A stretch of 64,000 bases of DNA from IMG/VR virus record IMGVR_UViG_2860903427_000006, positions 1 through 64,000 of that record; one strand, written 5' to 3'. Below are positions 16,860 through 62,338 of the stretch, in pieces. The notes under the pieces were generated by a model. That model made no database searches. It saw only the letters and a list, made by a program, of their open reading frames with translations, and had not been told where the DNA came from. The DNA is from an uncultured virus (IMG/VR IMGVR_UViG_2860903427_000006). Lineage: Duplodnaviria > Heunggongvirae > Uroviricota > Caudoviricetes. Every line of letters starts with the position of its first letter. Position 1 is the first letter of the stretch. A program made the position numbers and the translations under genes.

Positions 16860-18946
16860 TACACCTTCTCCCAATTATTCTGGTCGGCAGGGTTCCCTCC
16901 CTTGAACCGGTATCCACTTCGCACCTCACCAGTTCGCGGAGCGACGGGTTGCGCCGACTGCGTTTGCTGGTCGATAAATTGTCCGGTCTGGTTGTTGAGT
17001 ACTCGTGCAGGGCGCGTCAGAAGTTGCATGGACTGCGGGTCGTACTCCTGGCCGCCAGGTACCACGGTGAAGCGATTCGGAGCGTCCTTACCAGCAAGCA
17101 CACGAATCTGTTCGGCGATCGCGGCGCGGTCTTCGGGAGCAGCCTTGTCGTACTGCTCGTACAGCTTCTCGATGCGCTGGGCGGCGCGGGTTTGGAAACC
17201 CCTGGCCTCTTGCTCACCAGCCAGGCGTTGGCGATCGAGTTCGTTGGAGGCGAGGAAGCGCGCGCCCTGCCCCATTTCCTGTAGAGCAGCGCGCTGATTG
17301 GCGCCCTGCTGCTGCACCTGCTCTCGCGCCAAGGCCGTGTCGTTATTCGCCCGAGTGCTCGCCAAGGACGTAGCATTGCGGTCATCGCTCTGCTGGAGCC
17401 CGAACAGGTTGTCGATCTGGCGGGCAGTTAACTGCCCGTTCGGCGAACCGCGATAAGGTGTTGAGGCTGCATTCAAGGCGGCCTGGCGAACGCTATCGGC
17501 CCGAGAGCTATCGGGAACCACGGTTACTCGAGGCGCGCTGGAGTTACCGGCGTTGTACTGAGCCAGCGCGTCCGGGGTCATCGGCGGTACCTGAGAAACA
17601 GTACTCGGACTGAACCCCATACCCACATCAGGCGTTCGGGCCAGCAGGTTCTCCACTGCGCGCTGGTTTTGAGCACTCCGCTGACCACCTGGGGTGAACC
17701 CGGCAGCTTGAGCTTCCCCGTTAACGGTGTAGCCCGGGCGGATTGTTGTGCCGGAGAAGCTGTTGCCCTCCCGCGTCACGTTGTTGGGCAGGTCCGAGCC
17801 ACCGGCGCCTGGCATAGCGGCTCCAGTATTCGCCGCCGACTCCAACGCTCCGGTAGGCGAACCAGCAGCCGGCAACACCTGGCCTCGCCCGGGCACAGCA
17901 CTGGAACTTGGACCTGCTGCACCCTGGGCCGCTTGCTGACCACGAAGCGCCGGCGGAGTGTCATCCCATCCGAATAGCCCTTTACCGAAGTTGACCACCG
18001 GTTCAGCCAATCGACCGACATCCTCTCCAGCATCAGCGAATGCTGCCGGAACCGCCGCAAGCGCCCCACGCACGCCAGTCCCAAAGCCTCGGGCATACTC
18101 ACCCGATGCCCACTGCTGCGCTACGTCGTCACCCGTCCCGCGGAGAACCGAGTCGGTTCGCCAGCCTGGCCCTTCAGTACGGTACTGCGGAGTGAAACCA
18201 GCAGCTTTAGATCGATCAGGGCCCGTTACCGGTTGATCAAACTGAGCCTGCATCCTTGCCGCTCTGGCTGGGTCATTACCTTGTCGCGATGGCGCGAAAC
18301 CTTGTGTCGACGGTATATCGGGCAGTGGTCCGGCCTGTGCAATGGCCTGTTGCTGCCGTGCCGCGTCCGAACGTGCCTGGGCGTTGGCGGTATAGAGATT
18401 GTCGCTGTATCCCGGCGCAACACCTGGCTGGAGCTTTGCAGCATCAGCAGTGCGCTGACGGTGCACAGCGAGAGCCTGCTGCTCGGCATCGATGTTGGCC
18501 TGGGCCTTCGCCATGGTAGGGTTTGAGCTGTAGCCGCTGATGACCTGCTGCGGCCGCTTCCGTCGCTCTTCCACTACGCCACCGTCGGCAAAAAACATCT
18601 CCGGCTTGCCGGGGGCGCTCTTTTCCGGTTTGAAGCCATCGGAACTCCGATCCGCTGGGGTGTGCGTGGCATCCTTCATTGCATCCAGAGCCTTCACGCC
18701 AACGGCATGAACTTGTTCCGGAGGCAGTTGAAACTCGCCGTCGCTCAAGTTAACCGCTACCGGCGCCCCGAGCCCCCCAAGTGCTTCCTCGCCGATCGCT
18801 TCCGTGGAATCAGCCGGCATGATGTAGGAGCCCGCCGGAACTTCTGCTTTGATGTCGTCGGAGGTTCCGGTCCCCGGGCCAGTCACGCGCCCACCTTCAG
18901 CCAACTGCTGAACTTTGGATTTCGCGCCTTTCTTGAATCCGAACAT
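16859..18946 (-). CDS. putative internal virion/ejection protein
   Basis: 695 aa, Ala/Gln/Gly-rich; GG.V.GPGTGTSD and LSDGEF motifs; C-terminal GYRFKGGNP..NWEKV. Confidence 0.7.
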   Translation of the reverse strand: MFGFKKGAKSKVQQLAEGGRVTGPGTGTSDDIKAEVPAGSYIMPADSTEAIGEEALGGLGAPVAVNLSDGEFQLPPEQVHAVGVKALDAMKDATHTPADRSSDGFKPEKSAPGKPEMFFADGGVVEERRKRPQQVISGYSSNPTMAKAQANIDAEQQALAVHRQRTADAAKLQPGVAPGYSDNLYTANAQARSDAARQQQAIAQAGPLPDIPSTQGFAPSRQGNDPARAARMQAQFDQPVTGPDRSKAAGFTPQYRTEGPGWRTDSVLRGTGDDVAQQWASGEYARGFGTGVRGALAAVPAAFADAGEDVGRLAEPVVNFGKGLFGWDDTPPALRGQQAAQGAAGPSSSAVPGRGQVLPAAGSPTGALESAANTGAAMPGAGGSDLPNNVTREGNSFSGTTIRPGYTVNGEAQAAGFTPGGQRSAQNQRAVENLLARTPDVGMGFSPSTVSQVPPMTPDALAQYNAGNSSAPRVTVVPDSSRADSVRQAALNAASTPYRGSPNGQLTARQIDNLFGLQQSDDRNATSLASTRANNDTALAREQVQQQGANQRAALQEMGQGARFLASNELDRQRLAGEQEARGFQTRAAQRIEKLYEQYDKAAPEDRAAIAEQIRVLAGKDAPNRFTVVPGGQEYDPQSMQLLTRPARVLNNQTGQFIDQQTQSAQPVAPRTGEVRSGYRFKGGNPADQNNWEKV

Positions 18947-20923: not shown

Positions 20924-22083
20924 ACTCTCCTGTTGGTCGGCGCCGATTCGACGCTCAGGTCATTGATATAGCCGTGCCGGCCGGTCAGGCGAAGCGTGAA
21001 CGTGAAGTGCCTGCCGCGCAGGCCCCGGCCGAACTTGAAGCGCCCATTGGTCAACTCGTCTGCAGGCTCGCTCTCCAGCGGGTAGCTGTAGGTCGCTGCG
21101 CTGCCGCTTTGCGTGGTGGTCACGTCCATGGCCACCGTGCCATCAGCATCCAGTGCATACTCCAGATAGGCGCTATGCGGATGCACCAGCGCGCCCTGGC
21201 CGATGTCCAGTTTCCCGGTCGCGATTCTGCCGGCCACCGGCTGGCTGTCACCGTCCAGCGCATAAACGCCGTCTTCGGCGATGCCGTACAGCCGACCGTC
21301 GATCACAGCAAGCGACCGGAAGGTATACGGCGCGTAGCGGCTCATCGCCCAACTATCGACGTTTGCGGTCCAAGCCTGGCCGCCGTCCTGGTCGCCCCCC
21401 ACGGTGATGTCCTCGATCACCACGGCATCCGATACCAGGTCGCGCGCCGCCAGATGGTCCAGCACCAACGCGGCAATGCTCGCTCCGTCCACCAGCAGCG
21501 CCTGCACCGCCTGGTGCGCATCCATCACCTCATCGGTAAGGGAGGCCCCGTCCACCAGCAGAACACGACCATGCAGCGTTCCGCTTGCCTGGTCGCTCGC
21601 GGTGGCAACGTCCTCCACCAGCACGCTGGCGGACTGACCGGTGCTGTCGCTCATGCGCGCGGTATCCAGTACCAAAGTGAACGCATGGCGGGTACCTAGC
21701 ACCTCGTCCGCTACCGTCGCGCCATCCACCGCCAGGCTACGCACGTGCTCCAGCACCGCATCCGACGCTGTGGCGCCATCAGTGTGCAGGACGCGCAGGG
21801 TGCCGGTAACCCGATCTGCCGCCGTGACCGTCTCGACCACCAGCACCCTGCCATGGAGTTGGTCGCCGGCCGCATCGCTGATTACTGCCTGGTCGACCAG
21901 TAGGTGTGCCGGTCGATCCATGGTTTCGTCCGACACCGCGGCGCTGTCGGTGTGCAGCACTAGCAGGCCGTAGAGCACCGTCTCGCTGACGCGGGCAGTC
22001 CCTTCGCTGATGGCGGTCAGCCCCAGCCAGGTCTTGTCGCTGATCACCGCTGTGTCGTTGGAGTCGTCGCGGTAGTCACTCAT
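20920..22083 (-). CDS. virion protein with about 10 D.A..SD repeats
   Basis: 387 aa; 18-21-aa repeats followed by a globular C-terminal domain. Confidence 0.7.
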   Translation of the reverse strand: MSDYRDDSNDTAVISDKTWLGLTAISEGTARVSETVLYGLLVLHTDSAAVSDETMDRPAHLLVDQAVISDAAGDQLHGRVLVVETVTAADRVTGTLRVLHTDGATASDAVLEHVRSLAVDGATVADEVLGTRHAFTLVLDTARMSDSTGQSASVLVEDVATASDQASGTLHGRVLLVDGASLTDEVMDAHQAVQALLVDGASIAALVLDHLAARDLVSDAVVIEDITVGGDQDGGQAWTANVDSWAMSRYAPYTFRSLAVIDGRLYGIAEDGVYALDGDSQPVAGRIATGKLDIGQGALVHPHSAYLEYALDADGTVAMDVTTTQSGSAATYSYPLESEPADELTNGRFKFGRGLRGRHFTFTLRLTGRHGYINDLSVESAPTNRRV

Positions 22084-24673
22084 TGATTACCCCTATGAAA
22101 TGATGGGCCGTCTTATGGTCCGCCAGTCTGGTAGTTCCCCAGCGGCGACGAAGGCCGTCCTGCCCGGGTTCGTATATGCTGGCGTAGCGGGACTCGCCGA
22201 ACGTGATATGAACCGCGTCCTGGTAGAAGTAGAAGTCATCTTCCGGCGAGAACCCCCAGTACCAGGAGTGCGGAATTTCTCGGTTGACGACTGTCGCGCC
22301 GGCCACGGACAGGCAAACACTCAGGCGCCCGCTACTCTCGTTGGGGTACTGGGTGTCCTTACGGTACGGATCGAAACCTGGCGCCTCGCCGCCGATGATG
22401 ACGCCGTTGGCGTTATGCACGGAATTGCGGTAGGTGTACGGTCCGCATATGCCGGTGACGTCCAGGAAGCCACCAGGTGGTAAGTTCAGCCAGTTGCCGC
22501 TTTCGGCGAAGTCGCTGATTTCGGTGGGGCTGTAGACCAGCGTGTCGACATAGACCGGCACCCCATCCTTGGATGGCGGGTCGCCCCGGTTCCCGTTCCG
22601 CGTTTGCCCCATCCAGTGCCAAATGTCGTCGTAACACCAGAGTTGGTAGGACGTGGGGTCGGGCACGGCGCCCTGTGTGGTTTCCTCGTGGGAACTGCGC
22701 CCCCCGGTATGATCCTGGTAGGCATAGAGCATGCAATCGCGCTCGAACACCGGCACCAGCGCCGCCACGTCCAGGGTGAACGTCTCGGTAGTGTCTACCG
22801 TGGTACGGTGCATGTAGTACCTGGATCGGCTCACGCCGCCGACGCACCAGAGTGTTGGCGGCGTGGAGTAAGCCGGGTTGCCATAGCCCATGTCGGTGCC
22901 GACGATGTTGGTATGGACCGTTACCGCCGGCTGCTCCTGCCGATCGTCGAAGTCGGTCGTGTAGAAGAACCCCATCAGCCCGCTAAGACCAAAGGTTTCG
23001 GTCTTCTCCCACTGGCCGACGATCATGTACTGCTCGAACGTGCTTGTCGTTTCCTGCTGGAACTTGCGTTCGTCGTAGAAATACTTGATGACACGCAACT
23101 GGTCCTCGACATAGCAGCCGAAGACTATGGTGTCGCACTTCACTGCGCCGCCGGAATAGTCGGGCGAGATGTGCGGGAAGGACTCGCACCCCTGCCCCGT
23201 CAGTTCGGGGAACTTCAGGCGGGTGCAAGACTTCAAGACCTTGGACGGCCAGTAGAACGGTCCACTGGCCACGCGACTAATGTGCCCCTGATGCTGTGCG
23301 ATGGGGGGAAGTTCTAAATTCTCCCAATACTCGAGGTCACTGCCAGATTCCGTCGCGGCACGCGCCAAGATTTGCCCAACCGGAACGCGCCTGACTTTGT
23401 ACATGATGGCCAACTCACGCGCGCCGCCAGCGGATAGCGCGCTGTAAACCTTCGAAAGGTAGGCATTGAGCTTGGCGCGCTGCTCCTCGTCATCGAACTG
23501 CCATTCGTTCTCGATGCGCCCCTGGTTCTTCGCTGGTGCCAGCGACAAGCGCATCTTGTACGCGTGGACCCGCATTAGGCCGGTGTCGTCATAACCCCAA
23601 CAGGTGTTGAAACCTTCCGTACCTCGGCTGTTCATCGCCCAGCCGCAGGCCGTATACATCGGATTAAAGCTGTAGAAGTCAGCAGCATCGCAGACTTTGA
23701 TGATGACGCCCGCGCGACGCCATGCCTCGAACTCGCTGCCAGTGGGTGGGAAACCTTCCCCCGACGGCATCCCGCCGAAGCGATCCAACAGTCGCAGGAT
23801 CTCATCGTCGCCGACCTCCTCCACATATCGACGGAACGCATCGGTTGTGGTCGCCGGTACTACCGGCAGCGGCATAGCGTAGACGCCCTGGCCATCGATC
23901 TGTAGCAGCCATGGGCTGTTACTTGAGTCGAAGGCCACACCATGGCAACGAAACGCCACATACTCGCATTTGAACTGACCCGCTTCGTCAGGGAAGCCGC
24001 TGTAGCCGGGCAAACGCACATTTCCAAGCTGCTCGCGCACCAGTGCCATGTAGCGCTCTGGCACCAGCATGCGGACACGCTCCACATCGTTCTCCGGAAG
24101 ATCCTCCAGGCGCTGCCGCCCATAGCCGCCAGCCACCTGCATGACTTCAGCCATGGCCCCGCTGTACCAAGTCGGGCGTTGCTTGACGTACTGCGTGAAG
24201 GTGTAGATGCCCTGCTGGGGCGGCTCAAAGTATTGGAAGCGCGGTTCGTACTTGATGACGAAGCGTTGCAACGCCACATCCTTCGGCGGAAGCGCCGCTT
24301 TCGGGTCGTAGGCCACCAGCCGGCGCCGGGTCTGCTCGGTCAACCTGATGCCAACGCCCTGCCCGTCGGTCAGCACCTGGGCGCGGGTGATGACGCCGGA
24401 GAACAGCATGGGGATGTTGGTCTGTGCCACGCCGTCGAAACGGAATTGCGGAAGCTCATGCTGTTCGAGCACCAGGATGCGAAAAACCCCGCCCATGTCG
24501 ATGGCCACCGCCTGCCGGCCGCTGGGCAGGTCCGCAACGCGCTTCAGGTTGGCGAGGTCAGACGCCTGCTTGAAGTTCGTCAGGTTCCTGGCCAGCCGCT
24601 CGACAGCGGCGGCATCGGCGGCGGAGAGTTCCGCGTCTTCCGCGAAACGTCCGTAGGGGCGCGGCGAATACAT
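22076..24673 (-). CDS. putative tail/virion protein
   Basis: 865-aa aromatic-rich ORF in the virion operon. Confidence 0.65.
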   Translation of the reverse strand: MYSPRPYGRFAEDAELSAADAAAVERLARNLTNFKQASDLANLKRVADLPSGRQAVAIDMGGVFRILVLEQHELPQFRFDGVAQTNIPMLFSGVITRAQVLTDGQGVGIRLTEQTRRRLVAYDPKAALPPKDVALQRFVIKYEPRFQYFEPPQQGIYTFTQYVKQRPTWYSGAMAEVMQVAGGYGRQRLEDLPENDVERVRMLVPERYMALVREQLGNVRLPGYSGFPDEAGQFKCEYVAFRCHGVAFDSSNSPWLLQIDGQGVYAMPLPVVPATTTDAFRRYVEEVGDDEILRLLDRFGGMPSGEGFPPTGSEFEAWRRAGVIIKVCDAADFYSFNPMYTACGWAMNSRGTEGFNTCWGYDDTGLMRVHAYKMRLSLAPAKNQGRIENEWQFDDEEQRAKLNAYLSKVYSALSAGGARELAIMYKVRRVPVGQILARAATESGSDLEYWENLELPPIAQHQGHISRVASGPFYWPSKVLKSCTRLKFPELTGQGCESFPHISPDYSGGAVKCDTIVFGCYVEDQLRVIKYFYDERKFQQETTSTFEQYMIVGQWEKTETFGLSGLMGFFYTTDFDDRQEQPAVTVHTNIVGTDMGYGNPAYSTPPTLWCVGGVSRSRYYMHRTTVDTTETFTLDVAALVPVFERDCMLYAYQDHTGGRSSHEETTQGAVPDPTSYQLWCYDDIWHWMGQTRNGNRGDPPSKDGVPVYVDTLVYSPTEISDFAESGNWLNLPPGGFLDVTGICGPYTYRNSVHNANGVIIGGEAPGFDPYRKDTQYPNESSGRLSVCLSVAGATVVNREIPHSWYWGFSPEDDFYFYQDAVHITFGESRYASIYEPGQDGLRRRWGTTRLADHKTAHHFIGVINE

Positions 24674-24677
24674 CGGC

Positions 24678-25268
24678 TTAGACAGTCAGGTTCAGCCGGT
24701 AGCCGATATCGTAGGTGTCGCCGTTCTGGAACACACGAGTCGCCGCGTACTTCGAGGCCGATACCAGCGCACCCGTGGTGCCACCCTTGGTGCTGTTGGT
24801 CAGCAACGCGGCGCCGTTGACGTTGAGTTGCGACGCCGTGGCGATGGTTACGGTCGCGACCGCGTTCATGTTGTCGATGGAACCGGTAGCGGTATCGGTC
24901 GGCGTCCAGGCTGGGCGGGTAGCGCTGGTGTAACCCTCGGTCATGCTGGTGATCTCCGAGGCCACCGCGGCGAAGTTGGCGGCGGTCCAGTTGGCAGCAG
25001 GTGCTGCCGTCCCAGCGAACAGGGCCAGGAAATACGACACCTTGGGCTTGCTGCCCAGCGCGATGTTGAGGATGTGCGCCAGGCCCTCGGTGGGGATCAG
25101 GTTGTCGCCCTCCTTCTCCCACTCGCCGCTGTTGATGCGGCCGAAGTATTCGCCACCGGCCAGTACGCTGAGCCGCGGGAAGGCAATGCCGTTTTCGGTG
25201 ATGTCGAAGCTACCAGTGGCCAGGTCGGCGGCCAGTTCTTTGCGCAGAGCGCTGCTAATGCGTTGCAT
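24678..25268 (-). CDS. virion structural protein (beta-rich, Ala/Thr-rich)
   Basis: 196 aa, strongly biased codons, GGAGA RBS. Confidence 0.7.
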   Translation of the reverse strand: MQRISSALRKELAADLATGSFDITENGIAFPRLSVLAGGEYFGRINSGEWEKEGDNLIPTEGLAHILNIALGSKPKVSYFLALFAGTAAPAANWTAANFAAVASEITSMTEGYTSATRPAWTPTDTATGSIDNMNAVATVTIATASQLNVNGAALLTNSTKGGTTGALVSASKYAATRVFQNGDTYDIGYRLNLTV

Positions 25269-25290
25269 AGGGTTCTCTCCGAAGTCCCAT

Positions 25291-25308
25291 GCCGCACTCC
25301 TGCGCAGC
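25291..25308 (-). promoter_or_regulatory. AGGA-loop RNA hairpin (Csr/Rsm-like site)
   Basis: GCTGCGC-AGGA-GTGCGGC, 22 nt before ATG 25268. Confidence 0.6.
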
Positions 25309-25335
25309 GATTGAAGGCCCGATATTCGGGGTGAT

Positions 25336-26526
25336 TCAGCTTACAGCCGTCAGCAGACGGCGGTCGAACACTACAGAGGTACCGGCACGGCCGGTGATAC
25401 CGGTGAGCACGCCTGCATGAACTTCGGCGATGGCGCCACTGCTGGTGCCCATGACGTAGCCGTTCTCCGCCAGCCACACGGCAACCGGCGAGCCATCCGG
25501 TGATGCGTTGGTGCCTACCGCCTCGGCGGGGACCAGGATCGCACTACCAGGCACCGGAGCCCGCGATGCACGGCGCGACACGCTCAGGCTTGCCGGGTCG
25601 ATACCATCGAGAAAGGCGACGTGATCAACCTGCCCCACCCAGATCCCGCCGTCCACCGGCTGCAGGAAGGTAATGCGCTGGGGCATCTGCACGAACCCGT
25701 AACGCTCATCATGCAGGTGGTACGTCAGCGCTTCGGAGAATCGCAGCACGTTAGCGCGCGCGGTCAGCAGGCGCCCGCGCCAGTACGCCAGGTACTTGCC
25801 GGTGGGCATGGGCGACAGGTGGCGGAACTGCGCCGGTCGACCCAGCTCCGGTAGCGTCGGCAGGATGAGCGTGGCCGCGCCCAGCGGGTAGTCGCCGGCC
25901 AACAGCAGCTCGCCGCCATTCGCTCGCGTCAGGTAGAGGCGCGCGCCGGTAACGCTGGCATCCAGGCACAGCGGAAAGGTGACTTCCAGCGCGCCGGCAT
26001 CGGTCACGTCCGCGAAGGCGATCAGCGACGGCGCCGACTCCTGGGGGCCGCGCAGCCACGCCACAGCCGCGCCGTAGGTGCCTTGACTCAACGATCCGGC
26101 GCCTGCCACCAGCAGCGGCGGCGCCGGGGTGTCCAGCGTCAGGCGCTCGGCCTTCGCGCCATCGTAGGTGAAGATGCCCGCCGTTCCGGCGACGCACACC
26201 CGATTGTTCAGCACCTCGTGGGACAGGTCCCCTTCGCCGATCTGTGCGAGCGGCTCGAACGTCCATGAATGCGGATCGACCTTTCCCCACTGGTCGCCCA
26301 GGGCGCCGAAGGCGTCGCCGTGCAGTGGGCTTTGCCAGAGTTGGCGGAACGGCTGGTCCGTGACCTGGCGCGCAGAGGCCCGCAGTTGCGCCTTGCCGGC
26401 CGGCGACAGGTCTATGTTCACCGCCTCACGCACGTAGAGCCTCGGGCTCTCGCCGCCGCGTTGCAGCGCGGCATCTTCGGCGACGTTATTGATGCCGGCC
26501 AGCGGCATCAGGGAAGTCGTGGCCAT
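25336..26526 (-). CDS. putative tail tube/nozzle-like protein
   Basis: 396 aa; PLAGINN start, GRLLTA...LRFSE beta-propeller-like motifs. Confidence 0.6.
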   Translation of the reverse strand: MATTSLMPLAGINNVAEDAALQRGGESPRLYVREAVNIDLSPAGKAQLRASARQVTDQPFRQLWQSPLHGDAFGALGDQWGKVDPHSWTFEPLAQIGEGDLSHEVLNNRVCVAGTAGIFTYDGAKAERLTLDTPAPPLLVAGAGSLSQGTYGAAVAWLRGPQESAPSLIAFADVTDAGALEVTFPLCLDASVTGARLYLTRANGGELLLAGDYPLGAATLILPTLPELGRPAQFRHLSPMPTGKYLAYWRGRLLTARANVLRFSEALTYHLHDERYGFVQMPQRITFLQPVDGGIWVGQVDHVAFLDGIDPASLSVSRRASRAPVPGSAILVPAEAVGTNASPDGSPVAVWLAENGYVMGTSSGAIAEVHAGVLTGITGRAGTSVVFDRRLLTAVS

Positions 26527-29500
26527 CAGAAGGCTCCTTTGCGGTACTGATCCGCGTTGCCGTCAGGGCGGATGTAGTGGACACCTGGCTGCACATTGGG
26601 CACGCCCACATCCACTGAGTCCAACCCTACAGGTGCCACAGACTGGGCATTTGGACCCGGTGGAATGAAGACGTTGCGCACTCGCATGCGATCCGCGAAA
26701 TGCGACGGGTCGTATTCGCAGATGAACGACTCCCAGCCGTCCGGCTCAACCCCTCGTACCCGCAGCGAAACCCAGGCTGTGCCGAATGCTGATGTGTCGG
26801 TACCGCTTGGAATGGTCGGCATCGGCGGCCCAACATGCAGCGACTGCCACTGGTACGGACCCTCTCCACGCGAATACCCCATAGCCAGCGACGAGAGTCC
26901 GGTCATCTGGAGTCGACGATCCAGCAGCGATACCCATGTCGCCCCACCTGGGCCAGGGGCCAGCAGACCAGCAGGCCGAACCGTTTGCGGGCCGTAGTAG
27001 GGGCCACGGGCTACAGCAGGCGCCCCCAGTGACATCGAATCAGCACCGGCGAACTGCGTCACGAACTGGGTGCCATCACCCACGATCGCCCACCCCATGC
27101 GATACGCCTGCAGCCCCCGCGGCTCTAGGTAGCGACGTTTCAGGTAGATCGCGTGCTCACCCACCTTCGACACGTCGCCCAGCGGGAATGGCTTGAGGAT
27201 GCCCAAGTAGGTGCTGATGCGCGCCGAGCCGAACCGCTCGCCCGGAGGATAAACCAGCGTTTCCCCTACATAGTGCAGGTTACCGGCTGGATGGTTCTGC
27301 TTAGCCTGCTCGGGTGCCTCCTTCACCGCCCAGATGGTGTGCGGCGTGATGCGCGGCTTGGATGGCTGGAACACTTCAGCATCGGGCCACTCGTCCACCG
27401 TCAGCTTGCGCAGCTTCAAGCTCACGGCTGGCATGCCGTAGCCGTCCACCTTGATGCCAGCGTCGATGTTCACGCCCATGATGCGCACCGTTGGCTCCCC
27501 AACTTCCGCCGCCCGGATACCTACCGCGTACAGCACGTATTGATTCAGCCCGGGCTTTCCGAGCACCGCGCCGGTGTTGACCGCCCGATCCACCACGATG
27601 TTCTGCGGCGAGTACGGCGGTGCGCCGGTCTTGGTCACCACTAGCTTGTCGCCCATCCTGAGCAGGTTGGTGCCTGGAGCCGCGATGGTCTGCTTGCGGT
27701 CCGCGATCTTTGCCTGGCCGAACAACTGCATGTTGTTGCCGTCCGGCGCCACCGGACGCCATTGCAGGCGCACGAAGGCCGAACCGAACTCCTCGGCGTT
27801 CGCCCCGAAGGTCGCGACCTCCGGCGTCACGTTGTGGATGCGCGGATCGCCGAACAGGTCTTTGTGCGCCCACTTCGGCCCTATGGCGTTGAAGTGGATC
27901 GACAGGGCCACCAGGCCCATGTTCAGCATGTCGTTGCTCGCCGGATCGACGTAGCGCGTGTACAGCTTGACCTCGGGCAACTTGATATCCGGCGGCTCAA
28001 TGCTGTAGCGCGGCTCGATGCTGATGCCGCGAATGGCAAAATCGATGAACGCGATGCCGATATCCGCCGAGTCGAAGCCGCCGATGCGGTCGAAGTAGCG
28101 CCGCGTGTTCTCCACTCTCGCAACACCGAAAGCGCTTTGCGTATTCCCAGTCGGCACCAACACCCGCGCGCCGTTGTAGATGGCATGCCAATTCAGGATC
28201 GGCGGTGGTTCGATGCCTTCCAGAGGCAGGTAACGGCGGCCGTAGGCAATCATGGCTGCGTTGGTGATCTGCGGCGCCGCCACGCCACCCGGCAGGATCG
28301 GCCTGGCGTTGTTGTCGATCTGCGGGAAGCCGGCCGGCGGCGAAGGCATGCCGATGGTGCCCACTTGACGGTTTCGGTTCTCCACCAGCGTCCACTGCGA
28401 CCAGGGTGGCGGGTTCAACTCGCTGTCGGGGTCGTACTCCTGGACCACGTACTGGCGCAGGTTCCACACGTCCGCGCGGCCCCAGCGGTATTCCTCCTGC
28501 ACGGTACTCTGGAATCCGGCCGGCTCGGCAAAGGTGAGCCAGTTGTTGATAGCCTGCTGCCCCCACAACTCGGCGAAGCCTTGAGGCGCGACCGTCTGCG
28601 ACTCGGGAATGATCCGCGTGCCGAACGCCGAGGAATCCCAGCCTGGCGGCTCCAAGAAGCGCGTGCCGCCGACCATAGGCCTGGCCACGGCATCCAGGAA
28701 CGCGCCAATAGGCTCCAGAACGCGCGTTCCCTGACTGACCCATGCCGTCCCCATGCCTGGCGCTGGAACGCCAGCGTTGAGTTGCACGAACTGGCGTTCA
28801 TGGCTGATGCGGTGGGCATCCGATATCGCGGTCGCCAGCAGGCCGCCAGGCTTCAGGTAGCGGGTGTACAGCCAAATCGTGGGACTTGCGCCCCATGCCG
28901 GCGGCGCAATGTTGCCGGCCGCCACATAGCGGTTTCGGTTGATGATGTTCGCCTGCCCGCTTTGGTAGGCGACAAATCCGGTCGACTGAACTGTCCGGTG
29001 CTTATTCTGGATGGCATGCCCACCCACCGCGCCAGGCGACACGCCCTTTGGTGACAAGCGGGAAGTGAAGTTCCATACCGTTGACTGGCCGAACGCCTGA
29101 TGCACCGCTCCCTGCGCCTGCACATGGCGGAACTGGAGGCGGACCTCCGGGAGCGTCACCTCTCCATCGCTGATGCCGCCAGGGAACAACCATTGCGACT
29201 CGATCGGATGGTCTTCGCCATGCTCGAACTCCAGCCCGACCTGGTTGCCGGCAGGAGGCGTATATGGCGTGCCGAACTCCAGCCCGACCTGGTTCCCAAC
29301 GGGCGGGTGGTATGGCTTGAAGAACAGCAGCGGGACGTTGCTGGATGGCGGGACGGTGTAGCCGCGATCTACCGTCGAGAAATCCAAGTCCAGCACTACC
29401 TGCGGATCAGGTAGCAGCATCCGCTTCAGCGTCAAGTCACGCGGAAGAAGTGGCGGGCGGACGCCCCATACGCCAATCGTGCCGACGGGCAAGCCGCCTG

Positions 29501-29591
29501 GCGGGCCTCCACCAAGGTCTACCTGTCGGCTGCTGTCCGGCGTATAGCCGCTGGGGACCGTATCAAACCGCAGGTCAACGACCTGGCTCAT
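26526..29591 (-). CDS. repetitive tail/fibre protein
   Basis: 1021 aa; N-terminal YTPP..NQV.L.F repeats, then many P.G.....FG...V repeats. Confidence 0.7.
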   Translation of the reverse strand: MSQVVDLRFDTVPSGYTPDSSRQVDLGGGPPGGLPVGTIGVWGVRPPLLPRDLTLKRMLLPDPQVVLDLDFSTVDRGYTVPPSSNVPLLFFKPYHPPVGNQVGLEFGTPYTPPAGNQVGLEFEHGEDHPIESQWLFPGGISDGEVTLPEVRLQFRHVQAQGAVHQAFGQSTVWNFTSRLSPKGVSPGAVGGHAIQNKHRTVQSTGFVAYQSGQANIINRNRYVAAGNIAPPAWGASPTIWLYTRYLKPGGLLATAISDAHRISHERQFVQLNAGVPAPGMGTAWVSQGTRVLEPIGAFLDAVARPMVGGTRFLEPPGWDSSAFGTRIIPESQTVAPQGFAELWGQQAINNWLTFAEPAGFQSTVQEEYRWGRADVWNLRQYVVQEYDPDSELNPPPWSQWTLVENRNRQVGTIGMPSPPAGFPQIDNNARPILPGGVAAPQITNAAMIAYGRRYLPLEGIEPPPILNWHAIYNGARVLVPTGNTQSAFGVARVENTRRYFDRIGGFDSADIGIAFIDFAIRGISIEPRYSIEPPDIKLPEVKLYTRYVDPASNDMLNMGLVALSIHFNAIGPKWAHKDLFGDPRIHNVTPEVATFGANAEEFGSAFVRLQWRPVAPDGNNMQLFGQAKIADRKQTIAAPGTNLLRMGDKLVVTKTGAPPYSPQNIVVDRAVNTGAVLGKPGLNQYVLYAVGIRAAEVGEPTVRIMGVNIDAGIKVDGYGMPAVSLKLRKLTVDEWPDAEVFQPSKPRITPHTIWAVKEAPEQAKQNHPAGNLHYVGETLVYPPGERFGSARISTYLGILKPFPLGDVSKVGEHAIYLKRRYLEPRGLQAYRMGWAIVGDGTQFVTQFAGADSMSLGAPAVARGPYYGPQTVRPAGLLAPGPGGATWVSLLDRRLQMTGLSSLAMGYSRGEGPYQWQSLHVGPPMPTIPSGTDTSAFGTAWVSLRVRGVEPDGWESFICEYDPSHFADRMRVRNVFIPPGPNAQSVAPVGLDSVDVGVPNVQPGVHYIRPDGNADQYRKGAF
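29225..29294 (+). repeat. 22-bp direct repeat (48-bp period)
   Basis: CGAACTCCAGCCCGACCTGGTT at 29225-29246 and 29273-29294, encoding NQVGLEF twice. Confidence 0.9.
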
Positions 29592-29595
29592 GCAC

Positions 29596-30447
29596 CTACT
29601 CCAGCACGATGCGATCTGCGACGACGGCGTTAATTAGAGGCGGTGTTTCGTCGTCCAGGGCAATCAAGTACATCGTCGTTCCAACCTTGGCGATCACGGG
29701 AAGCTCATACTGACCGGACGCATTGCTACGCGTCTCGCCCAGTACGGCGCCGGAACTGCGTTCATGCGCCCGGACTATGCGCGTCGCCGGCTCGCCGGCC
29801 TGGTCCACCACGGTTCCTGATACCGTGCCACCATAGATCGAGCACGTCACCAACCCCACCGCGCCCAGCGCAATACTCGCTATGTCCACGACCGAAGCCA
29901 CCGTGGTTCCATTCAGGACGGCGACCTTGATTGGCAAGCCCGCTGCCTGCACGCTGTTTTTAATGGCTATTTCGAGTTGCCTACCACGCACAAGGCGCGC
30001 CACGACCTCGACGTTCTCGCCGGTTCGGTTGTGTTTCGCGCGGAACACCGACAAACCAGCGTCATAGCTACCAACGAACGATGTCAGACCAGAGTCAACC
30101 CCGGTCGGGTGGTAGATGATCGCCACGCGCAGGCCGACGTTCATGGAGTAGTAGCGGCTGACTCCAGGAATCCCGGCCGAATAGAAAGCGGGGGTTCCGC
30201 CGAACGGGTACGGCACCAGTTCGACGCCGCATTCCCAGGAGTAGACGGCTTGCGTCGCACCATTGGGCCAGATGGGCGGTACGTTGATAAGCGTGGCGCC
30301 ATCGTCTCCGGACGCGGCAGGATATCCCGTCGTAGTCCCCTCAAAACCGGACACCCATTCGGCCTGTAGTTCGTCAAGGGTCCTGGCGGTCGCCTCCATG
30401 CTGACCGCGATGAACTTGCTTGCATCCAGGTCAACTACCGTCGTCAT
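29596..30447 (-). CDS. putative receptor-binding/tail accessory protein
   Basis: 283 aa; C-terminal transthyretin/CarboxypepD-reg-like beta sandwich (SGTVVDQAGEP...SNASGQY). Confidence 0.6.
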   Translation of the reverse strand: MTTVVDLDASKFIAVSMEATARTLDELQAEWVSGFEGTTTGYPAASGDDGATLINVPPIWPNGATQAVYSWECGVELVPYPFGGTPAFYSAGIPGVSRYYSMNVGLRVAIIYHPTGVDSGLTSFVGSYDAGLSVFRAKHNRTGENVEVVARLVRGRQLEIAIKNSVQAAGLPIKVAVLNGTTVASVVDIASIALGAVGLVTCSIYGGTVSGTVVDQAGEPATRIVRAHERSSGAVLGETRSNASGQYELPVIAKVGTTMYLIALDDETPPLINAVVADRIVLE

Positions 30448-30454
30448 GCACTAC

Positions 30455-30811
30455 CTACTCCACTGCCGGGGCGACGTTCGCCATGATGGTGTCGTTGAAG
30501 CCGCTCTTTCGTCCCACCACGTCATAGCGCAGCGAAGGGTTCAGCCCGTCCACCCGCCAGGTACCATCGGCCACCGACTGCACTTCGGCAACCAGTACGC
30601 CATCACCGAGCGCACCGCCCGCGGAGCGATACAAGACTCGAACCGTTGCAGCCACTGGAGCGCCGCCGACAGTGGTGATACCGCTCGGAAACTCACCGGC
30701 CAGGTAGCCATTGCCGCCCGGTGGCAGGTCGCGCCCTCTGGTCAGCGTGACAGGATTTCCCGGCGGCTGAACGAACATGCTGTGCGGCGCGACCACCTCA
30801 TAAAGTGCCAT
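30455..30811 (-). CDS. small tail accessory protein
   Basis: 118 aa; same type of beta-sandwich motif (GITTVGGAP...SVADGTW). Confidence 0.6.
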   Translation of the reverse strand: MALYEVVAPHSMFVQPPGNPVTLTRGRDLPPGGNGYLAGEFPSGITTVGGAPVAATVRVLYRSAGGALGDGVLVAEVQSVADGTWRVDGLNPSLRYDVVGRKSGFNDTIMANVAPAVE

Positions 30812-30817
30812 TCGTTA

Positions 30818-31780
30818 TCACTCCCACAGCATGGCAATACATGCTCGGCTACTGTTTCCCGTGTACACGTCAGCCGGCCATACAGGGTTCATCACCAGGA
30901 AGTTGCGTTCTACGGTGCCAACTGCTGCCGCCATCGTGTCGTCGTTGCCGGATGCACCAATGGCTCGCGCAGCGCACAGAATTTGCGAAAGCCGTTTCGG
31001 CCTGGGCGTCATAGTGTAGATGTTGTAGAGAGGCACCTTGCCATCAACGGTGCTGATCTGCGCCGCGCCGAGCGCCAAGGCAGATCGGTCGTTTACGACT
31101 ATGACGCCGGCGGCATTGATGTGAACGCAGTAAGGGGCCTCCCCAAAGCTAGATCCAGTCCGACCACCTCTGGCGATAACCACCAGAGTGACGCCATCGG
31201 CGGTCGGCTCGCCGGCATCGTTGCAGTCGCGGCAGACAAAGAACTCCATCAACCCTGGCGCATCTGCAATGGCGGTAGATGGGCCGTAGTTGGCGGAAGG
31301 CTCAACGCAGAGTTGCTTGAACGACACGCCGAGAAAGCCCGGCAGCACACAAATGAAGGACTGCAGGTTCTGCCCGATCGCAGTTCCCCGATGTGACAAG
31401 TAGGAAGCGGTCGAGCATCCGACGAGGTATTCCGGCGAACCATTCACCAGGTTGCCGGCGCCATCCGTGCCGATGCCCAGGGAGAGATAGAACGACCAAG
31501 GGATCCGATTGGAAGAGGCAAAAGAACTGCTCGACGTGAACCTGATTTTCAAGAAGACGGGCAACGAGATTCCGTCATCAAGCTGGTAGATGCGAAAGCC
31601 ATAGGATGTGCTCGTCGTCAGAGTGGTCATGCTGTCGAAGTCCAGTTGCCCGGAATCCGATGCCGCGACCATTCCAGCAGTCAGGAGCTGGTCATGCAGT
31701 TCTTGGCACACGCGCTTGAAGTCAGGCAGCGCTACGGTGCTACTGGTCAAGGCTGGAGTGTTGAATGCCACCTTGGTCAT
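30818..31780 (-). CDS. putative tail fibre/receptor-binding protein
   Basis: 320 aa, Ser/Thr-rich, atypical codons, lies within the tail block. Confidence 0.55.
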   Translation of the reverse strand: MTKVAFNTPALTSSTVALPDFKRVCQELHDQLLTAGMVAASDSGQLDFDSMTTLTTSTSYGFRIYQLDDGISLPVFLKIRFTSSSSFASSNRIPWSFYLSLGIGTDGAGNLVNGSPEYLVGCSTASYLSHRGTAIGQNLQSFICVLPGFLGVSFKQLCVEPSANYGPSTAIADAPGLMEFFVCRDCNDAGEPTADGVTLVVIARGGRTGSSFGEAPYCVHINAAGVIVVNDRSALALGAAQISTVDGKVPLYNIYTMTPRPKRLSQILCAARAIGASGNDDTMAAAVGTVERNFLVMNPVWPADVYTGNSSRACIAMLWE

Positions 31781-32121
31781 GCCGGCTGTCCTTGCTTGGG
31801 CAGCAACTCGCCGAAGATGGTTTCACCGGGCCAGTAGCCTTTAGCCTGGTGCCACTGGGCATAGCACTCCAGCAGTATCTTGTCTCCGAGTTGGGCGCCG
31901 TAGCGTACGCCGTAGTCGATAGCCCACTGCTGCTGGGAGCGGTCGGGAGGGCACGGCGCCTGCTCCTGAACGAACATCTGGAAGGGCGGGAGCGCGCCGA
32001 TGGCCTGCCAGTTGACATGTAGGTCTTGAGCCGGCGTCAGTTCGATCGGCTTGGGCTCGATACCTTGCGCGCCGATGCCCTGAGTCGGTGGCTTCACGGC
32101 CTGCTCAGTTGTGCCAGTCAT
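31777..32121 (-). CDS. hypothetical protein
   Basis: 114-aa ORF, AAGGAGG RBS, overlaps neighbours. Confidence 0.7.
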   Translation of the reverse strand: MTGTTEQAVKPPTQGIGAQGIEPKPIELTPAQDLHVNWQAIGALPPFQMFVQEQAPCPPDRSQQQWAIDYGVRYGAQLGDKILLECYAQWHQAKGYWPGETIFGELLPKQGQPA

Positions 32122-32500
32122 CGCTGTCCTCCTTAGCTACCCGGCGCGGCTTATTGCCGCGCCCGACCCTGGTGTACCGGCCTTGCGTCCCCTCCTGGCA
32201 CATGGCGAAGGCGGCGCGAACGGCTTCCACGGCGGTGATAGGCTGACGCATGGCCTCGGCGGCGAGCGCCAGGTTGTCCTGGATGTCCTTGTCCGTCACC
32301 ACGCCGCGGCCGAGCTGGTCGAACAGGCTGGCGTACATACGCTGCCAGGTCTGGACCTGGTTCTGGAGCTGGCGCCCCTGCTCCACCCACATCTCCCGTT
32401 CGATCAGCAGACCCTGCTCACGAGCCTTAGAGCGAGCAAGTTCGATGCGGAGCTGTTCAATCTCAAGCGTGGTGGTGTCGGTATTCTTGCGTTTGAGCAT
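32105..32500 (-). CDS. hypothetical coiled-coil protein (possible tail assembly chaperone)
   Basis: 131-aa ORF from ATG 32500 with AGGAG RBS. Confidence 0.65.
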   Translation of the reverse strand: MLKRKNTDTTTLEIEQLRIELARSKAREQGLLIEREMWVEQGRQLQNQVQTWQRMYASLFDQLGRGVVTDKDIQDNLALAAEAMRQPITAVEAVRAAFAMCQEGTQGRYTRVGRGNKPRRVAKEDSDDWHN

Positions 32501-32505
32501 CTTCT

Positions 32506-32517
32506 GCACTCCTGCGC
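32506..32517 (-). promoter_or_regulatory. AGGA-loop RNA hairpin overlapping the RBS
   Basis: GCGC-AGGA-GTGC, 5 nt before ATG 32500. Confidence 0.55.
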
Positions 32518-32525
32518 GTGGTTGA

Positions 32526-32933
32526 TCAGACTTTGAAAATCTTGTTCGTGCCGTTGTCCCACGTGACGATGATGTCGCCGCCGTTGGGGGTGATCGGCAA
32601 GCCGGTAGCCGTGTCGATGAATGCAATCAGCGGGCTGGTGGACTCGGTACCGGTGTCCTTGTAGATGATGATTGCCTCGATGCTCGCGCCGGACACACTG
32701 GTGAACGTCACATCCGCACCGTCAGCAGCGCCGCCGGTGGTGGTCTTCGCGGTGAGAGTGACCGGGCCAGCGATCCGGGACGACGACGGGATATCCGACA
32801 GGTACTGGTGGATCGCAGTCTGCGGCGTGTAGGCGCCGGTATCGACCAGGATCACCTTGATCGTGTCGGTCATCCAGTTGAACTGACCTTCCAGGAAGCG
32901 CTGGCGGGCATAGTCATAGAGGGTATTTGCCAT
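32526..32933 (-). CDS. virion structural protein (small beta-sandwich fibre subunit)
   Basis: 135 aa; IKVILVD...ADVTF...LIAFID...LPITPNGGDI.VTW, a motif set common in phage minor tail proteins. Confidence 0.75.
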   Translation of the reverse strand: MANTLYDYARQRFLEGQFNWMTDTIKVILVDTGAYTPQTAIHQYLSDIPSSSRIAGPVTLTAKTTTGGAADGADVTFTSVSGASIEAIIIYKDTGTESTSPLIAFIDTATGLPITPNGGDIIVTWDNGTNKIFKV

Positions 32934-33120
32934 CAGGGGTGTGCTCCAGGTCTTGGAGCGCACTCCTGCGCGCTGCTGCGGGGTTTTGAATAACGGTGCC
33001 TTCGTCGGCCGAGATCTGCAGGCGCGCCACCTGCCCGGACTTCTTCTCCAGGCGGATGGCAGTACCATCGATCAGCAGTACCTCTCCGACCTTCAGGTCC
33101 ACGCTCATCTTCTTGCTCAT
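32914..33120 (-). CDS. small protein with CsrA-like fold signature
   Basis: MSVDLKVGEVLLIDGTAIRLEKKSGQVARLQISAD aligns by eye with Csr[19 protein letters not shown]....G.QVRIGV.AP. Confidence 0.6.
   Translation of the reverse strand: MSKKMSVDLKVGEVLLIDGTAIRLEKKSGQVARLQISADEGTVIQNPAAARRSALQDLEHTPDGKYPL
32958..32973 (-). promoter_or_regulatory. AGGA-loop RNA hairpin (Csr/Rsm-like site)
   Basis: GCGCGC-AGGA-GTGCGC, 24 nt before ATG 32933. Confidence 0.6.
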
Positions 33121-33794
33121 GGCCAGAATGCCTCTACATGGTGAGGAACGTCCTCACGGGTGATGCGCCGCAGGTCGGAGTCGGGCCGCTGGCCGAAGTA
33201 GGCCGTGAAGGCATCCTCGGCCAGTGCGGCGCGGCTCGGGTCAAACGATTCCATGTCGGGGATGCTGAATCCGCGATGCAGCGCCCACTGGACCAGGTGC
33301 CGGTGGTGTTCGGGGTGTATCTCCGGCTGCACGGTGTCCTTGTCGGTCAGCGTCATGTCCGCCAGGGGCGTGCGGTAGCCTTCAAGACGCAAGATACCGG
33401 CGCGGTCAGGGGTCGGAGCCAGGCGCAGCGTGGTGTCGTGCTGGATTGCGTACAGCGGCTTGCCGGTGCAGGCGCGCCAGCCGGGCCTCTCCGCATCAAG
33501 CACCTCGGCCGACTTCAGCACCGGCATGGTCGGGCGCGACATATCGGCCGGGTAGAAGCCAAGGTGCGACAGTTCGTATAGCGACGCATGCAACTGGTAG
33601 ATGGCAGTTCCGGCGACCACCTCGATGCGGCACACGGCGTCGGCCTGGCTCTCATGGATCAGCCTGCCGCGCACGGCGGCTTCGCGCACTGCGTCGTTGA
33701 GCCAGTCGGCCACGTCCTGGTCCGACCAGAAATACGGCTCCACCATGTCATTCGCGTCCGTGCGAACTCGGCGGATCAGGTCGGCCAGCGTCAT
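33117..33794 (-). CDS. head-tail adaptor/connector
   Basis: MTLADLIRRVR...D...YFWSD..V..WLNDA..E; LRLAPTP; H..LV.WAL motifs. Confidence 0.75.
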   Translation of the reverse strand: MTLADLIRRVRTDANDMVEPYFWSDQDVADWLNDAVREAAVRGRLIHESQADAVCRIEVVAGTAIYQLHASLYELSHLGFYPADMSRPTMPVLKSAEVLDAERPGWRACTGKPLYAIQHDTTLRLAPTPDRAGILRLEGYRTPLADMTLTDKDTVQPEIHPEHHRHLVQWALHRGFSIPDMESFDPSRAALAEDAFTAYFGQRPDSDLRRITREDVPHHVEAFWP

Positions 33795-34663
33795 ACCGCG
33801 CCACCGAACTGGTCGATGCGTGCGTGGACGGCATCACGGGAGCGCGCTAAGCCGTGCTGCTTGACCAGGTTCAGTCCGTAGCGGTCCTTGGCGAATGCCG
33901 CCAGGCTGGTGAAGTCGGCGAAGTTGTCCACCTCCCGGTGCAGGGCCGATAGGTCTTCCTCCTTGCGAGCGCGCTCCTTCTGCTCCTGCTGGGCCTGCGC
34001 GATCACCTGCTTGGTGTCGTCGCCGGCCGGTGCGGGGCCGGTGGAGCGCTCGAACAGGTCGCGATGGTTGAGGAATCGACGCGCCAGGTCGCCGGGCACG
34101 CTACGCACCTGCCCTTGGGTGAACATCAGCCCCGAGCCATACAGACGGTCGGTGAAGCTTTCCCGCGGGCCGATGTACTTGATGGGCACGCCGTTATCCA
34201 GCATGGGCACGCCGTCGCTCGCAATCTGCGCCACCAGGGCCGCATTCTTGCCTAGCACCTCGTTGAGTTGGTCTTGCAACTCAGCCACGCGCGCGTCGGC
34301 GTCCTGGCTCCCAGCGTCCGGGATGTCCTTGAGTGCATGAACCACGGCGCGGAACAGGTAGTCCTTGACCTTCTGCGACTCGGGCAACTCGGCGTAGGGA
34401 ACGCAGCACGGGTGCGTCTTCGCCTCGAAGTCCTTGACCTCGCCATGGACCCAGCCGTTGGCCAGCTTGTCCGCCAGCCAGGACTCATGGGACTGCTCGG
34501 GGGTGGTGTCTGGGTTGTCCAGGTGGAGTTGCACGCCGGCCAGGATGCCGCGCTGCATGTCTTCCGGGCACTCGGCGAACGGTGGCGCCACCTTGTCGCC
34601 GATGGCGAGGCAGTAGGAGGAATTGATCGCGTGGGCGATGGTGGCGATGAGGATGGGTTTCAT
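33791..34663 (-). CDS. RyR-domain protein
   Basis: HESW..DKLANGW.HGE.KD...KTHPCCVPYAELPESQKVKD is the RyR domain signature; coiled coil and a separate C-terminal domain follow. Confidence 0.85.
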   Translation of the reverse strand: MKPILIATIAHAINSSYCLAIGDKVAPPFAECPEDMQRGILAGVQLHLDNPDTTPEQSHESWLADKLANGWVHGEVKDFEAKTHPCCVPYAELPESQKVKDYLFRAVVHALKDIPDAGSQDADARVAELQDQLNEVLGKNAALVAQIASDGVPMLDNGVPIKYIGPRESFTDRLYGSGLMFTQGQVRSVPGDLARRFLNHRDLFERSTGPAPAGDDTKQVIAQAQQEQKERARKEEDLSALHREVDNFADFTSLAAFAKDRYGLNLVKQHGLARSRDAVHARIDQFGGAV

Positions 34664-48203: not shown

Positions 48204-48575
48204 ATGCTGATCCTCACTCGCCGAGTCGGCGAAACCCTGCACATTGGCGACGACATCACCGTGACCGTCGTCGAGAACAGAGGCGGCCAGATCCGCCTCG
48301 GAATCGTTGCTCCGGAAGCGATGGCCATTCATCGCGCCGAGATCTACGCCCGGGTTGGCGCCGTCCGGCCCGCCTCACCCAAAGACCTGGTTGAAGAGTG
48401 GAATCGCACGCACCCGGCCCAGGTGGCCGTTGAGTACCGTCCGCTCCGCGACTCCATCCCCATCCGCACCAGAACGCTCACTCAAGCCAAAGTTTCCGCC
48501 TCCGGCATGGCGGTGATCTGGCTAGAAGGTCAGGCCACGCCGGTGCTGCTACGCAACTGCACTGCTGTTTCCTGA
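48204..48575 (+). CDS. csrA: CsrA/RsmA homolog fused to a C-terminal domain
   Basis: [23 protein letters not shown]...QIRLGI.AP...IHRAEIY plus about 65 extra aa. Confidence 0.92.
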
Positions 48576-62021: not shown

Positions 62022-62338
62022 GGCAGAAACCAGGCATCGCACTTCCCCGCTGGCTCCTTCGCACAACCACGATGCAGATGCACAGCGTCGACGTGGTACT
62101 GGTCATGGCCCTGGTGCTCCAGCACCACGGTACGGCCGACGCTGTTCGCCGCGCCGCCGGTCAGCTTCGCGACAGAGTATGTGCCGAGCACCGGCCCAAG
62201 ATGACCGCGCTCATGCGCATGCAAGACGACGTGGCGGCGCTGCAGGTGGCGCTCAACATCGTCCAGCGCGCCACCGACGCCCTCGGCATCCTGCCGGGAA
62301 CGCCATTTCCGGCCGGCCCGGTACTAACTAACCGTTAA
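62018..62338 (+). CDS. hypothetical protein
   Basis: 106 aa, ATGA-coupled. Confidence 0.65.
   Translation: MRQKPGIALPRWLLRTTTMQMHSVDVVLVMALVLQHHGTADAVRRAAGQLRDRVCAEHRPKMTALMRMQDDVAALQVALNIVQRATDALGILPGTPFPAGPVLTNR

Follow-up and report, generated by a model that had tools for sequence, protein, structure and literature searches.

A small RNA hairpin of consensus GCGC-ANGA(N)-GUGC recurs in the late operon of the prophage analyzed here and in the equivalent regions of many related phages, and is predicted to serve, together with a 68-amino-acid (aa) CsrA-like protein encoded by the same operon, in the translational control of virion genes. The window (64,000 nucleotides (nt) of the IMG/VR record IMGVR_UViG_2860903427_000006) covers 64.0 kb out of a 65.5-kb provirus record and corresponds to an F116-like Pseudomonas prophage. 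Region 24000-36000 matches 34 Pseudomonas phage records, including those of F116 (a Hollowayvirus), H66 and LKA5, with 95-98% identity over 71-76% of the query among the matches listed (30 of the 34). The hairpins lie within the late operon, which reads portal, capsid, adaptor, 68-aa open reading frame (ORF) and tail genes on the minus strand. That the hairpin is a real element, conserved at the RNA level, is virtually certain; that the phage CsrA-like protein is its binder is predicted with good confidence; that this protein is a translational activator of capsid or fibre subunits, comparable to Com on the mom gene of phage Mu and acting at the hairpins named below A, C and pre-capsid, is the reading favoured here, with some reserve. 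The gene already bears a CsrA-like label, but no described target was found for it. No description of the hairpin was found in CC-licensed PMC papers and bioRxiv, which omit most of the subscription literature.

The core of the element is a 12-mer found in three exact copies, all on the minus strand (25305-25294, 32517-32506 and 32971-32960) and all close to start codons, as reported in a preliminary description of the sequence. Shuffling yields 0.04 copies on average, and a maximum of 1 in 100 shuffles. The 12-mer ends 26 nt from the start at 25268, 6 nt from that at 32500, and 27 nt from that at 32933. Copies with up to two mismatches are not in excess (26 found, 19.1 expected; this number is attained in 11 of 100 shuffles), and the element is therefore represented by three copies, not by a dispersed family. 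Stems of 6-7 bp had been assigned to two of the hairpins; this holds for sites A and C, both of 7 bp (loops at 32967 and 25301), the copy at 32513 having a stem of 4 bp (Table 1). A covariance model run on the window returned E<0.001 for 32956-32975 and 25290-25309 only, the 32506 copy scoring E 0.42. The second stem noticed over the Shine-Dalgarno sequence (SD) of the gene starting at 32933, and regarded as a potential switch, is real: the GCTCCA/TGGAGC anti-SD pairing is part of the minimum-energy fold, with a z of -3.2 and none of 200 shuffles equally stable. The partial copy described before 34663 was in turn discarded, being a 2-bp stem that coincides with the SD of that gene and is unlisted by the covariance model. 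Further copies at 62214, 7478-7497 and 43794 were not counted as members of the set, none having a model score better than E 0.4. A second small hairpin is found just upstream of site C (25312-25330), and is kept with changed sequence in many relatives. The single Rfam match in the window is a tRNA; rows at 32300-33200 are weak and at chance level, and no match above the gathering score was obtained in six relative loci.

Table 1. Coordinates of the hairpins, of the genes next to them and of the CsrA-type proteins (ON and OFF, states in which the ribosome-binding site is proposed to be free or hidden)
Feature	Coordinates	Strand	Description
68-aa protein, proposed binder	32914..33120	minus	divergent CsrA-fold protein; phrog_8397; F116p47 'CsrA-like regulator'
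Early canonical CsrA-domain protein	48204..48575	plus	F116 counterpart classed as RsmM in the available text of PMC7366521; set aside as conserved binder
Site A	32957..32974	minus	7-bp hairpin, AGGA loop 32967-32964, loop 34 nt before ATG 32933; proposed protein-bound ON state
Site A OFF fold	32935..32967	minus	loop, 3' arm and anti-SD 32959-32954 pair with SD 32948-32943 and spacer
Site B	32506..32517	minus	4-bp hairpin; its AGGAG serves as SD for the ORF with start 32500; predicted to repress if bound, evidence weaker
Site C	25291..25308	minus	intergenic 7-bp hairpin, AGGA loop 25301-25298, loop 33 nt before ATG 25268
Site A target	32526..32933	minus	phrog_644 protein of 135 aa; homologue of the Bxb1 tail wing arm gp31
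ORF directly behind site B	32105..32500	minus	131 aa; no PHROG match
phrog_11163 gene	31777..32121	minus	function-unassigned; gene at site-B position in most relatives
Site C target	24678..25268	minus	196-aa phrog_8123 protein, homologous to a 171-aa structural chain

Relative loci (L numbers) were gathered by searches with the 68-aa ORF, its profile and the downstream gene. The same three positions are reused in distant relatives, infecting Pseudomonas, Acinetobacter, Comamonadaceae, Burkholderia and Erwinia, and the conservation anticipated in the preliminary description is thus borne out. Loops are AGGA, AUGA, AAGA or ACGA. In distinct contexts, position 2 of the loop is U in 26, G in 18, A in 6 and C in 2 at site A, and G in 18, U in 7 and A in 4 at site C; a base other than G occupies it in 45 of the 81 contexts of the two sites. 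GGA is not conserved, hence the loop is not a canonical RsmA site. The string GCGC-A-GA-GUG is invariant in 36/36 distinct sites, partly owing to the search pattern, which fixed GCA-N-GAG-Y and left only G5, C6, U14 and G15 independent; the C-G closing pair, also present in 36/36 aligned sites, was demanded by the pattern. The three outer stem pairs covary (both sides changed in 32 cells, against 11.1 in shuffles), with a score of 0.374 versus at most 0.118 for slid partners. An invariant inner stem and loop within a covarying outer stem is the pattern of a recognised site. The hairpins of the upstream type that were retained lie 29-47 nt from the start, those of sites A and C and of the pre-capsid position being placed some 30-50 nt upstream of it.

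At its start the 68-aa ORF overlaps the stop of the adaptor gene, and at its 3' end it shares sequence with site A and with the beginning of the gene that follows. Within this ORF, site A is translated in one frame in 31 contexts and in a different frame in 12, which denotes selection on nucleotides; in seven loci (L063, L099, L117, L129, L131, L174 and L177) site A is found outside the ORF. Peptides matching site A close 58 of 149 family representatives; a constraint at the protein level was rejected as the cause of site A, given the two reading frames and the existence of intergenic copies. In Bcep22-like phages the CsrA-like gene precedes the capsid gene; the interval between the two holds the hairpin, whose loop often has a fifth base. 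Pre-capsid hairpins of the same design are found in Bcep22, JC1, PEp14, Skulduggery and Gamede, and in 16 of 33 further distinct loci, 10 more loci having a bulged variant. The 12-mer had also been considered as a recombination boundary; this was rejected, as site C and the pre-capsid sites reside in conserved regions and the loop varies. Tandem hairpins 26-30 nt apart were observed in two loci (L177:6963-6989, 9943-9970 and 16222-16248; L099:16722-16752), and such pairs could be bridged by one CsrA-type dimer. L099 carries two copies of the CsrA-like gene.

The direction of control, left open in the preliminary description, may be read from the folding of the leaders, which favours activation at two sites. 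In the free RNA the hairpin is rarely favoured by computation: its median probability is 0.0 in each of the three upstream classes, and loop and 3' arm are paired instead with SD, spacer and AUG; at site C the 3' arm and the bases following it pair with the start codon region. When the hairpin is forced, the energy required to open the ribosome-binding site (RBS) decreases by 0.5 kcal/mol or more in 76 of 89 sites, and in no case increases. In a test set of 45 non-redundant sites, from which sites more than 50 nt from the start had been removed, the drop is at least 2 kcal/mol at 36 (median 5.0), versus 27 of 335 controls carrying the start region of another gene (median 0.01), and the native site beats the control median in 42 cases. 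Among the 16 further pre-capsid hairpins, 15 show a drop of at least 2 kcal/mol. The variable loop base is Watson-Crick paired with its OFF partner at 29 of 34 sites (G-C 15, U-A 13, A-U 1; permutation mean 14.2, 0/10000 permutations reaching 29), a count biased towards pairing, since the registers come from predicted folds. Orthologous RBS in phages lacking gene and motif require a median of 6.85 kcal/mol (n=20) versus 10.2 for free motif-bearing leaders (n=27; p 0.008), and are similar to the forced-hairpin state (5.7 kcal/mol; p 0.16). As computed, the default fold hides SD or AUG and the alternative frees them, as expected of a protein-activated two-state leader. A gene-positive locus with a decayed site A (L066:9900-10001) has an open RBS (4.5 kcal/mol) and retains sites B and C.

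In the mechanism proposed, the small CsrA-fold protein of the late operon would bind the hairpin in its own late mRNA. Lacking the protein, hairpin loop and 3' arm would refold onto the downstream SD, spacer and AUG, turning the gene off, a step which is computed and backed by covariation. The small hairpin would form first in the course of transcription, and would be trapped by the bound protein, with loss of the anti-SD pairing and loading of ribosomes. In F116-like phages, sites A and C would thereby raise the output of fibre-type proteins, and in Bcep22-like phages the pre-capsid hairpin that of the major capsid protein. Site B may behave differently: the hairpin contains the SD or the AUG in most relatives, and the same binding would there repress, although the evidence is weaker. 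Site B matches with an AUGA loop in L021-L023, L063 and L159, where the start codon seems to be overlapped by the end of an upstream ORF, may be due to chance.

Repression at all sites, exerted by the same protein on the same hairpins through obstruction of the SD or of the ribosome standby region, would extend to sites A and C what site B suggests, and repression is the usual mode of CsrA (PMC7652899). It is nonetheless unlikely, because the RBS at A, C and pre-capsid sites is closed already without the protein, the forced hairpin opens most sites and closes none, and a covarying OFF fold would be needless for a repressor. An action on the transcript, by protection of the 5' end, mRNA stability or boxB-like antitermination, is suggested by a sigma70-like promoter located just upstream of the hairpin in Bcep22-like phages (score of at least 9/12 in 26 of 42 contexts, mostly at 14-19 nt), such that the hairpin opens the mRNA; CsrA is known to protect the flhDC 5' end (PMC7652899). 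The three sites of the window have no such promoter, the alternative fold aims at SD and AUG and covaries accordingly, and no terminator-like site was found next to the hairpins on the coding strand, all of which makes this explanation improbable. The promoter is commonly TTGCAA-N17-(G/C)ATAAT (L190:14185-14235 in Bcep22; L191-L194, L198-L232). The capsid gene of Bcep22-like phages may thus combine its own promoter with a translational lock.

The hairpin is found where the CsrA-like gene is found. In 46 loci left after de-duplication of 107 spanning capsid to nozzle, a site at any position was detected in 33 of the 34 loci with the gene and in none of the 12 without it; the sole miss (L155) retains the motif in the tail of the gene, ahead of an inserted gene. 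Since site A lies mostly within the gene, sites outside it were counted separately in 62 of 128 loci (the fragment L078, which has sites and whose 8-kb record does not hold the gene, was excluded). They were found in 28/43 gene-positive versus 0/19 gene-negative loci, and at a GC content of at least 52% in 25/25 versus 0/5. The gene is absent from 40/40 whole records behind gene-negative loci, nine of which are virus records at least 90% complete; as a positive control, the same search recovered the gene in 5/5 cases.

The preliminary description had named host RsmA or RsmN and the early CsrA protein as further candidate binders, which would tie virion assembly to the Gac/Rsm state. All three loops in the window are indeed AGGA, the Bcep22-like pentaloops AGGAU and AGGAG fit the canonical code A(N)GGAX, and RsmE binds even single-stranded GGA with low micromolar affinity (PMC4005645). 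The lack of GGA in more than half of the contexts upstream of the target genes speaks against such a binder, as do the hosts. No PF02599 match was obtained in four genomes hosting site-bearing prophages (Variovorax, Acidovorax, Comamonadaceae and Aquabacterium), assemblies whose completeness is not stated; if they are complete, neither host CsrA nor RsmM is the general binder. B. cepacia and B. cenocepacia are stated to be devoid of a chromosomal csrA (available text of PMC7366521), and in the six tested hosts endowed with CsrA the prophage loops carry U or A at position 2. Host proteins or the early RsmM-type protein are therefore very improbable as binders, and a Gac/Rsm link could exist only in P. 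aeruginosa phages, as an addition specific to that lineage. The base at loop position 2 follows a trend when L158-L163 are set against L159, L165, L170, L177, L182 and L186, CsrA-bearing hosts being associated with U or A, and PF02599-less hosts mostly with G; the sample is small and phylogenetically confounded, and P. aeruginosa phages, with their three AGGA loops, make exception.

The CsrA fold proposed for the 68-aa ORF is supported by several comparisons. The ORF matches phrog_8397, 'CsrA-like regulator' (E 3e-34), and has no match with the Pfam CsrA family (PF02599), falling below the gathering cut-off; 9 of 24 homologues match PF02599 weakly (best E 1.4e-4). A profile built on the 24 sequences matches RsmE (E 1.8e-5), and retrieved 893 clusters (50% identity, E<=0.001) among 1.84 billion representatives, some of which are possibly canonical CsrA. 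Alignment by hhalign of the family to the canonical CsrA domain encoded in the window gave 96.7%. The AlphaFold2 (AF2) monomer model, obtained with 150 sequences, has a mean confidence (pLDDT) of 82.6, low past residue 50. Top Foldseek matches of the model are all CsrA, RsmA or RsmE (best E 0.009, none below 0.001), and in VIA CsrA-type chains score Z 7.2 and 6.8, the first unrelated chain 2.7. Residues G12, G18, K27, G29, A32, R33, L34 and A38 are conserved in the family, with the signature KSGQxARL; the position of His43 of CsrA is variable, and the sequence of the C-terminal helix likewise not conserved. By these models, the protein is a CsrA-fold relative and not a canonical family member. 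The 'CsrA-like' genes of Bcep22, JC1, DC1, many Ralstonia phages, PEp14 and Skulduggery belong to the same family.

Several observations weigh against the activator reading or its binder. The position of Arg44 of CsrA is occupied by Asn46 in the 68-aa protein, and by Arg in 41 of 150 family members. At low GC, sites outside the gene were found in 3/18 gene-positive versus 0/14 gene-negative loci; these phages, mostly from Moraxellaceae, usually keep only the in-gene site A and do not provide independent evidence. When kinship is corrected for on a tree, 4-5 of 9 independent pairs are informative, all in the same direction (p 0.06-0.125), a test which is under-powered. No site was found in the available DNA of nine gene-positive loci (L024, L121, L122, L124, L125, L127, L130, L227 and L233); several are fragments, but L127 covers capsid to fibre genes. 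The drop in opening energy is below 2 kcal/mol at 9/45 sites and almost nil in JC1 with its own flanks, and 4/20 gene-negative leaders are also strongly closed (12.7-14.9 kcal/mol). The hairpin costs 5-9 kcal/mol at the sites of the window, so that capture would probably be kinetic, during transcription, and not at equilibrium. In the H66 record, neither the site A nor the site C target gene carries the mark given to genes found in virions by mass spectrometry, and a role of the switch in setting stoichiometry is thus conjectural. Finally, a single peptide of the JC1 homologue was detected in virions (PMC9144972).

The last finding would suit a protein acting elsewhere, for instance in the virion or on host mRNAs, with leaders that work protein-free, either as kinetic folding timers or driven by the ribosomes that translate the overlapping ORF. 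Where site A is inside the ORF, the OFF fold would be melted by ribosomes moving along it, and the weakness of the phylogenetic co-occurrence test leaves room for such leaders. Their likelihood is low all the same: the hairpin combines an inner stem and loop of fixed sequence with a covarying outer stem, site C and the pre-capsid sites lie between genes, site A is outside the ORF in seven loci, and the 19 gene-negative loci have no site at these positions.

The genes behind sites A and C support the fibre-type targets proposed in the preliminary description. The site A target is related to the Bxb1 tail wing arm (E 2e-21; fold E 8e-4), and a relation to gp80 fibres is weakly suggested (score 0.84, family on 23% of members). 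The site C target matches a 171-aa chain (26la_U, also in entry 44nx; E 9e-26), and this chain matches gp41, the subunit of fibre dimer II in podophage A1002. In 44NX the 171-residue gp41 is a fibre dimer subunit, four dimers residing on each of six fibres (PMC13730344), which by arithmetic makes 48 copies; the capsid protein is present in 535 copies (PMC13730344). Paralogy of the two targets was rejected for lack of profile similarity (0.3%). An Atlas look-up on phrog_11163 gave no usable lead.

The system resembles, and departs from, known ones. With CsrA/RsmA/RsmE (PF02599; PDB 2jpp, 1vpz) it shares the predicted fold and a small C-G-closed hairpin that lies near ribosome sites and has a loop of the type A...GA; pentaloop variants fit A(N)GGAX with N absent. 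Unlike that family, the phage protein is below the Pfam cut-off, the His43-Arg44 positions and the C-terminal helix sequence are not conserved, and KSGQxARL is found instead; the first G of GGA is free in the phage hairpin, which has an invariant inner stem and lies mostly upstream of the SD. In the activation of ymdA, moaA and phz2 by CsrA/RsmA (PMC7652899), binding similarly prevents the formation of an SD-sequestering structure; yet those are single targets of a global host regulator, with GGA sites, whereas the phage regulator is apparently dedicated, one leader design preceding several structural genes. In Mu Com/mom (PMC6483171), too, a small phage protein binds a hairpin loop beside a start-hiding structure and activates translation, but Com is a zinc finger and its target a DNA-modification gene, in place of a CsrA fold and virion genes. 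RsmM of P. aeruginosa phages (PMC7366521) is encoded in the same phage; it has a canonical CsrA domain, is located in the early region, and is absent from the four hairpin-carrying genomes mentioned above. The 'CsrA-like regulator' or moron genes of Lessievirus and Hollowayvirus (Bcep22 gp54, JC1 gp47, F116p47) encode the same protein family. In the available text of PMC9144972 and PMC10269572 the gene is treated as a moron with benefit unassigned, no RNA target being named; the available text of PMC7366521 mentions these phage genes, likewise without naming a target. The word 'phage' does not occur in the main text of PMC13443453.

Other features of the window were noted. A minus-strand tRNA gene (563-635) lies close to the left end of the provirus. 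The 3856-aa ORF at 5304-16874 corresponds in F116 to a region annotated as two ORFs, one a methyltransferase. The interval 29009-31828 is a variable tail cassette, related phages being shorter and different in sequence there. A 290-aa gene with a RyR domain (33791-34663; PF02026, E 6e-11) is located between cement and adaptor genes. No solved-structure match was obtained for 26526-29591 and 22076-24673.

The analysis gives a candidate function to the 'CsrA-like' gene of F116-, Bcep22-, Ralstonia- and Erwinia-type podophages, for which the literature found names no target. Since the site differs from the host code A(N)GGAX, the circuit would be able to run apart from host Csr/Rsm. It is tentatively proposed, at slightly less than even confidence, that a widespread phage branch of the CsrA fold, with its own code ANGA(N) on a GCGC/GUGC stem, is a dedicated activator and an orthogonal translational ON switch, which would unlock riboswitch-like leaders of high-copy capsid and fibre subunits, keep them silent under leaky transcription, and tend to avoid GGA in CsrA-bearing hosts. 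If true, this would be a mechanism by which one late transcript yields hundreds of capsid and dozens of fibre subunits beside parts needed in 6-12 copies, and the 68-aa protein with its 18-nt hairpin would make a compact tool for synthetic translational control. Phage translational activators are few, and the system is a candidate for joining them; it also suggests a route by which the CsrA fold may change specificity.

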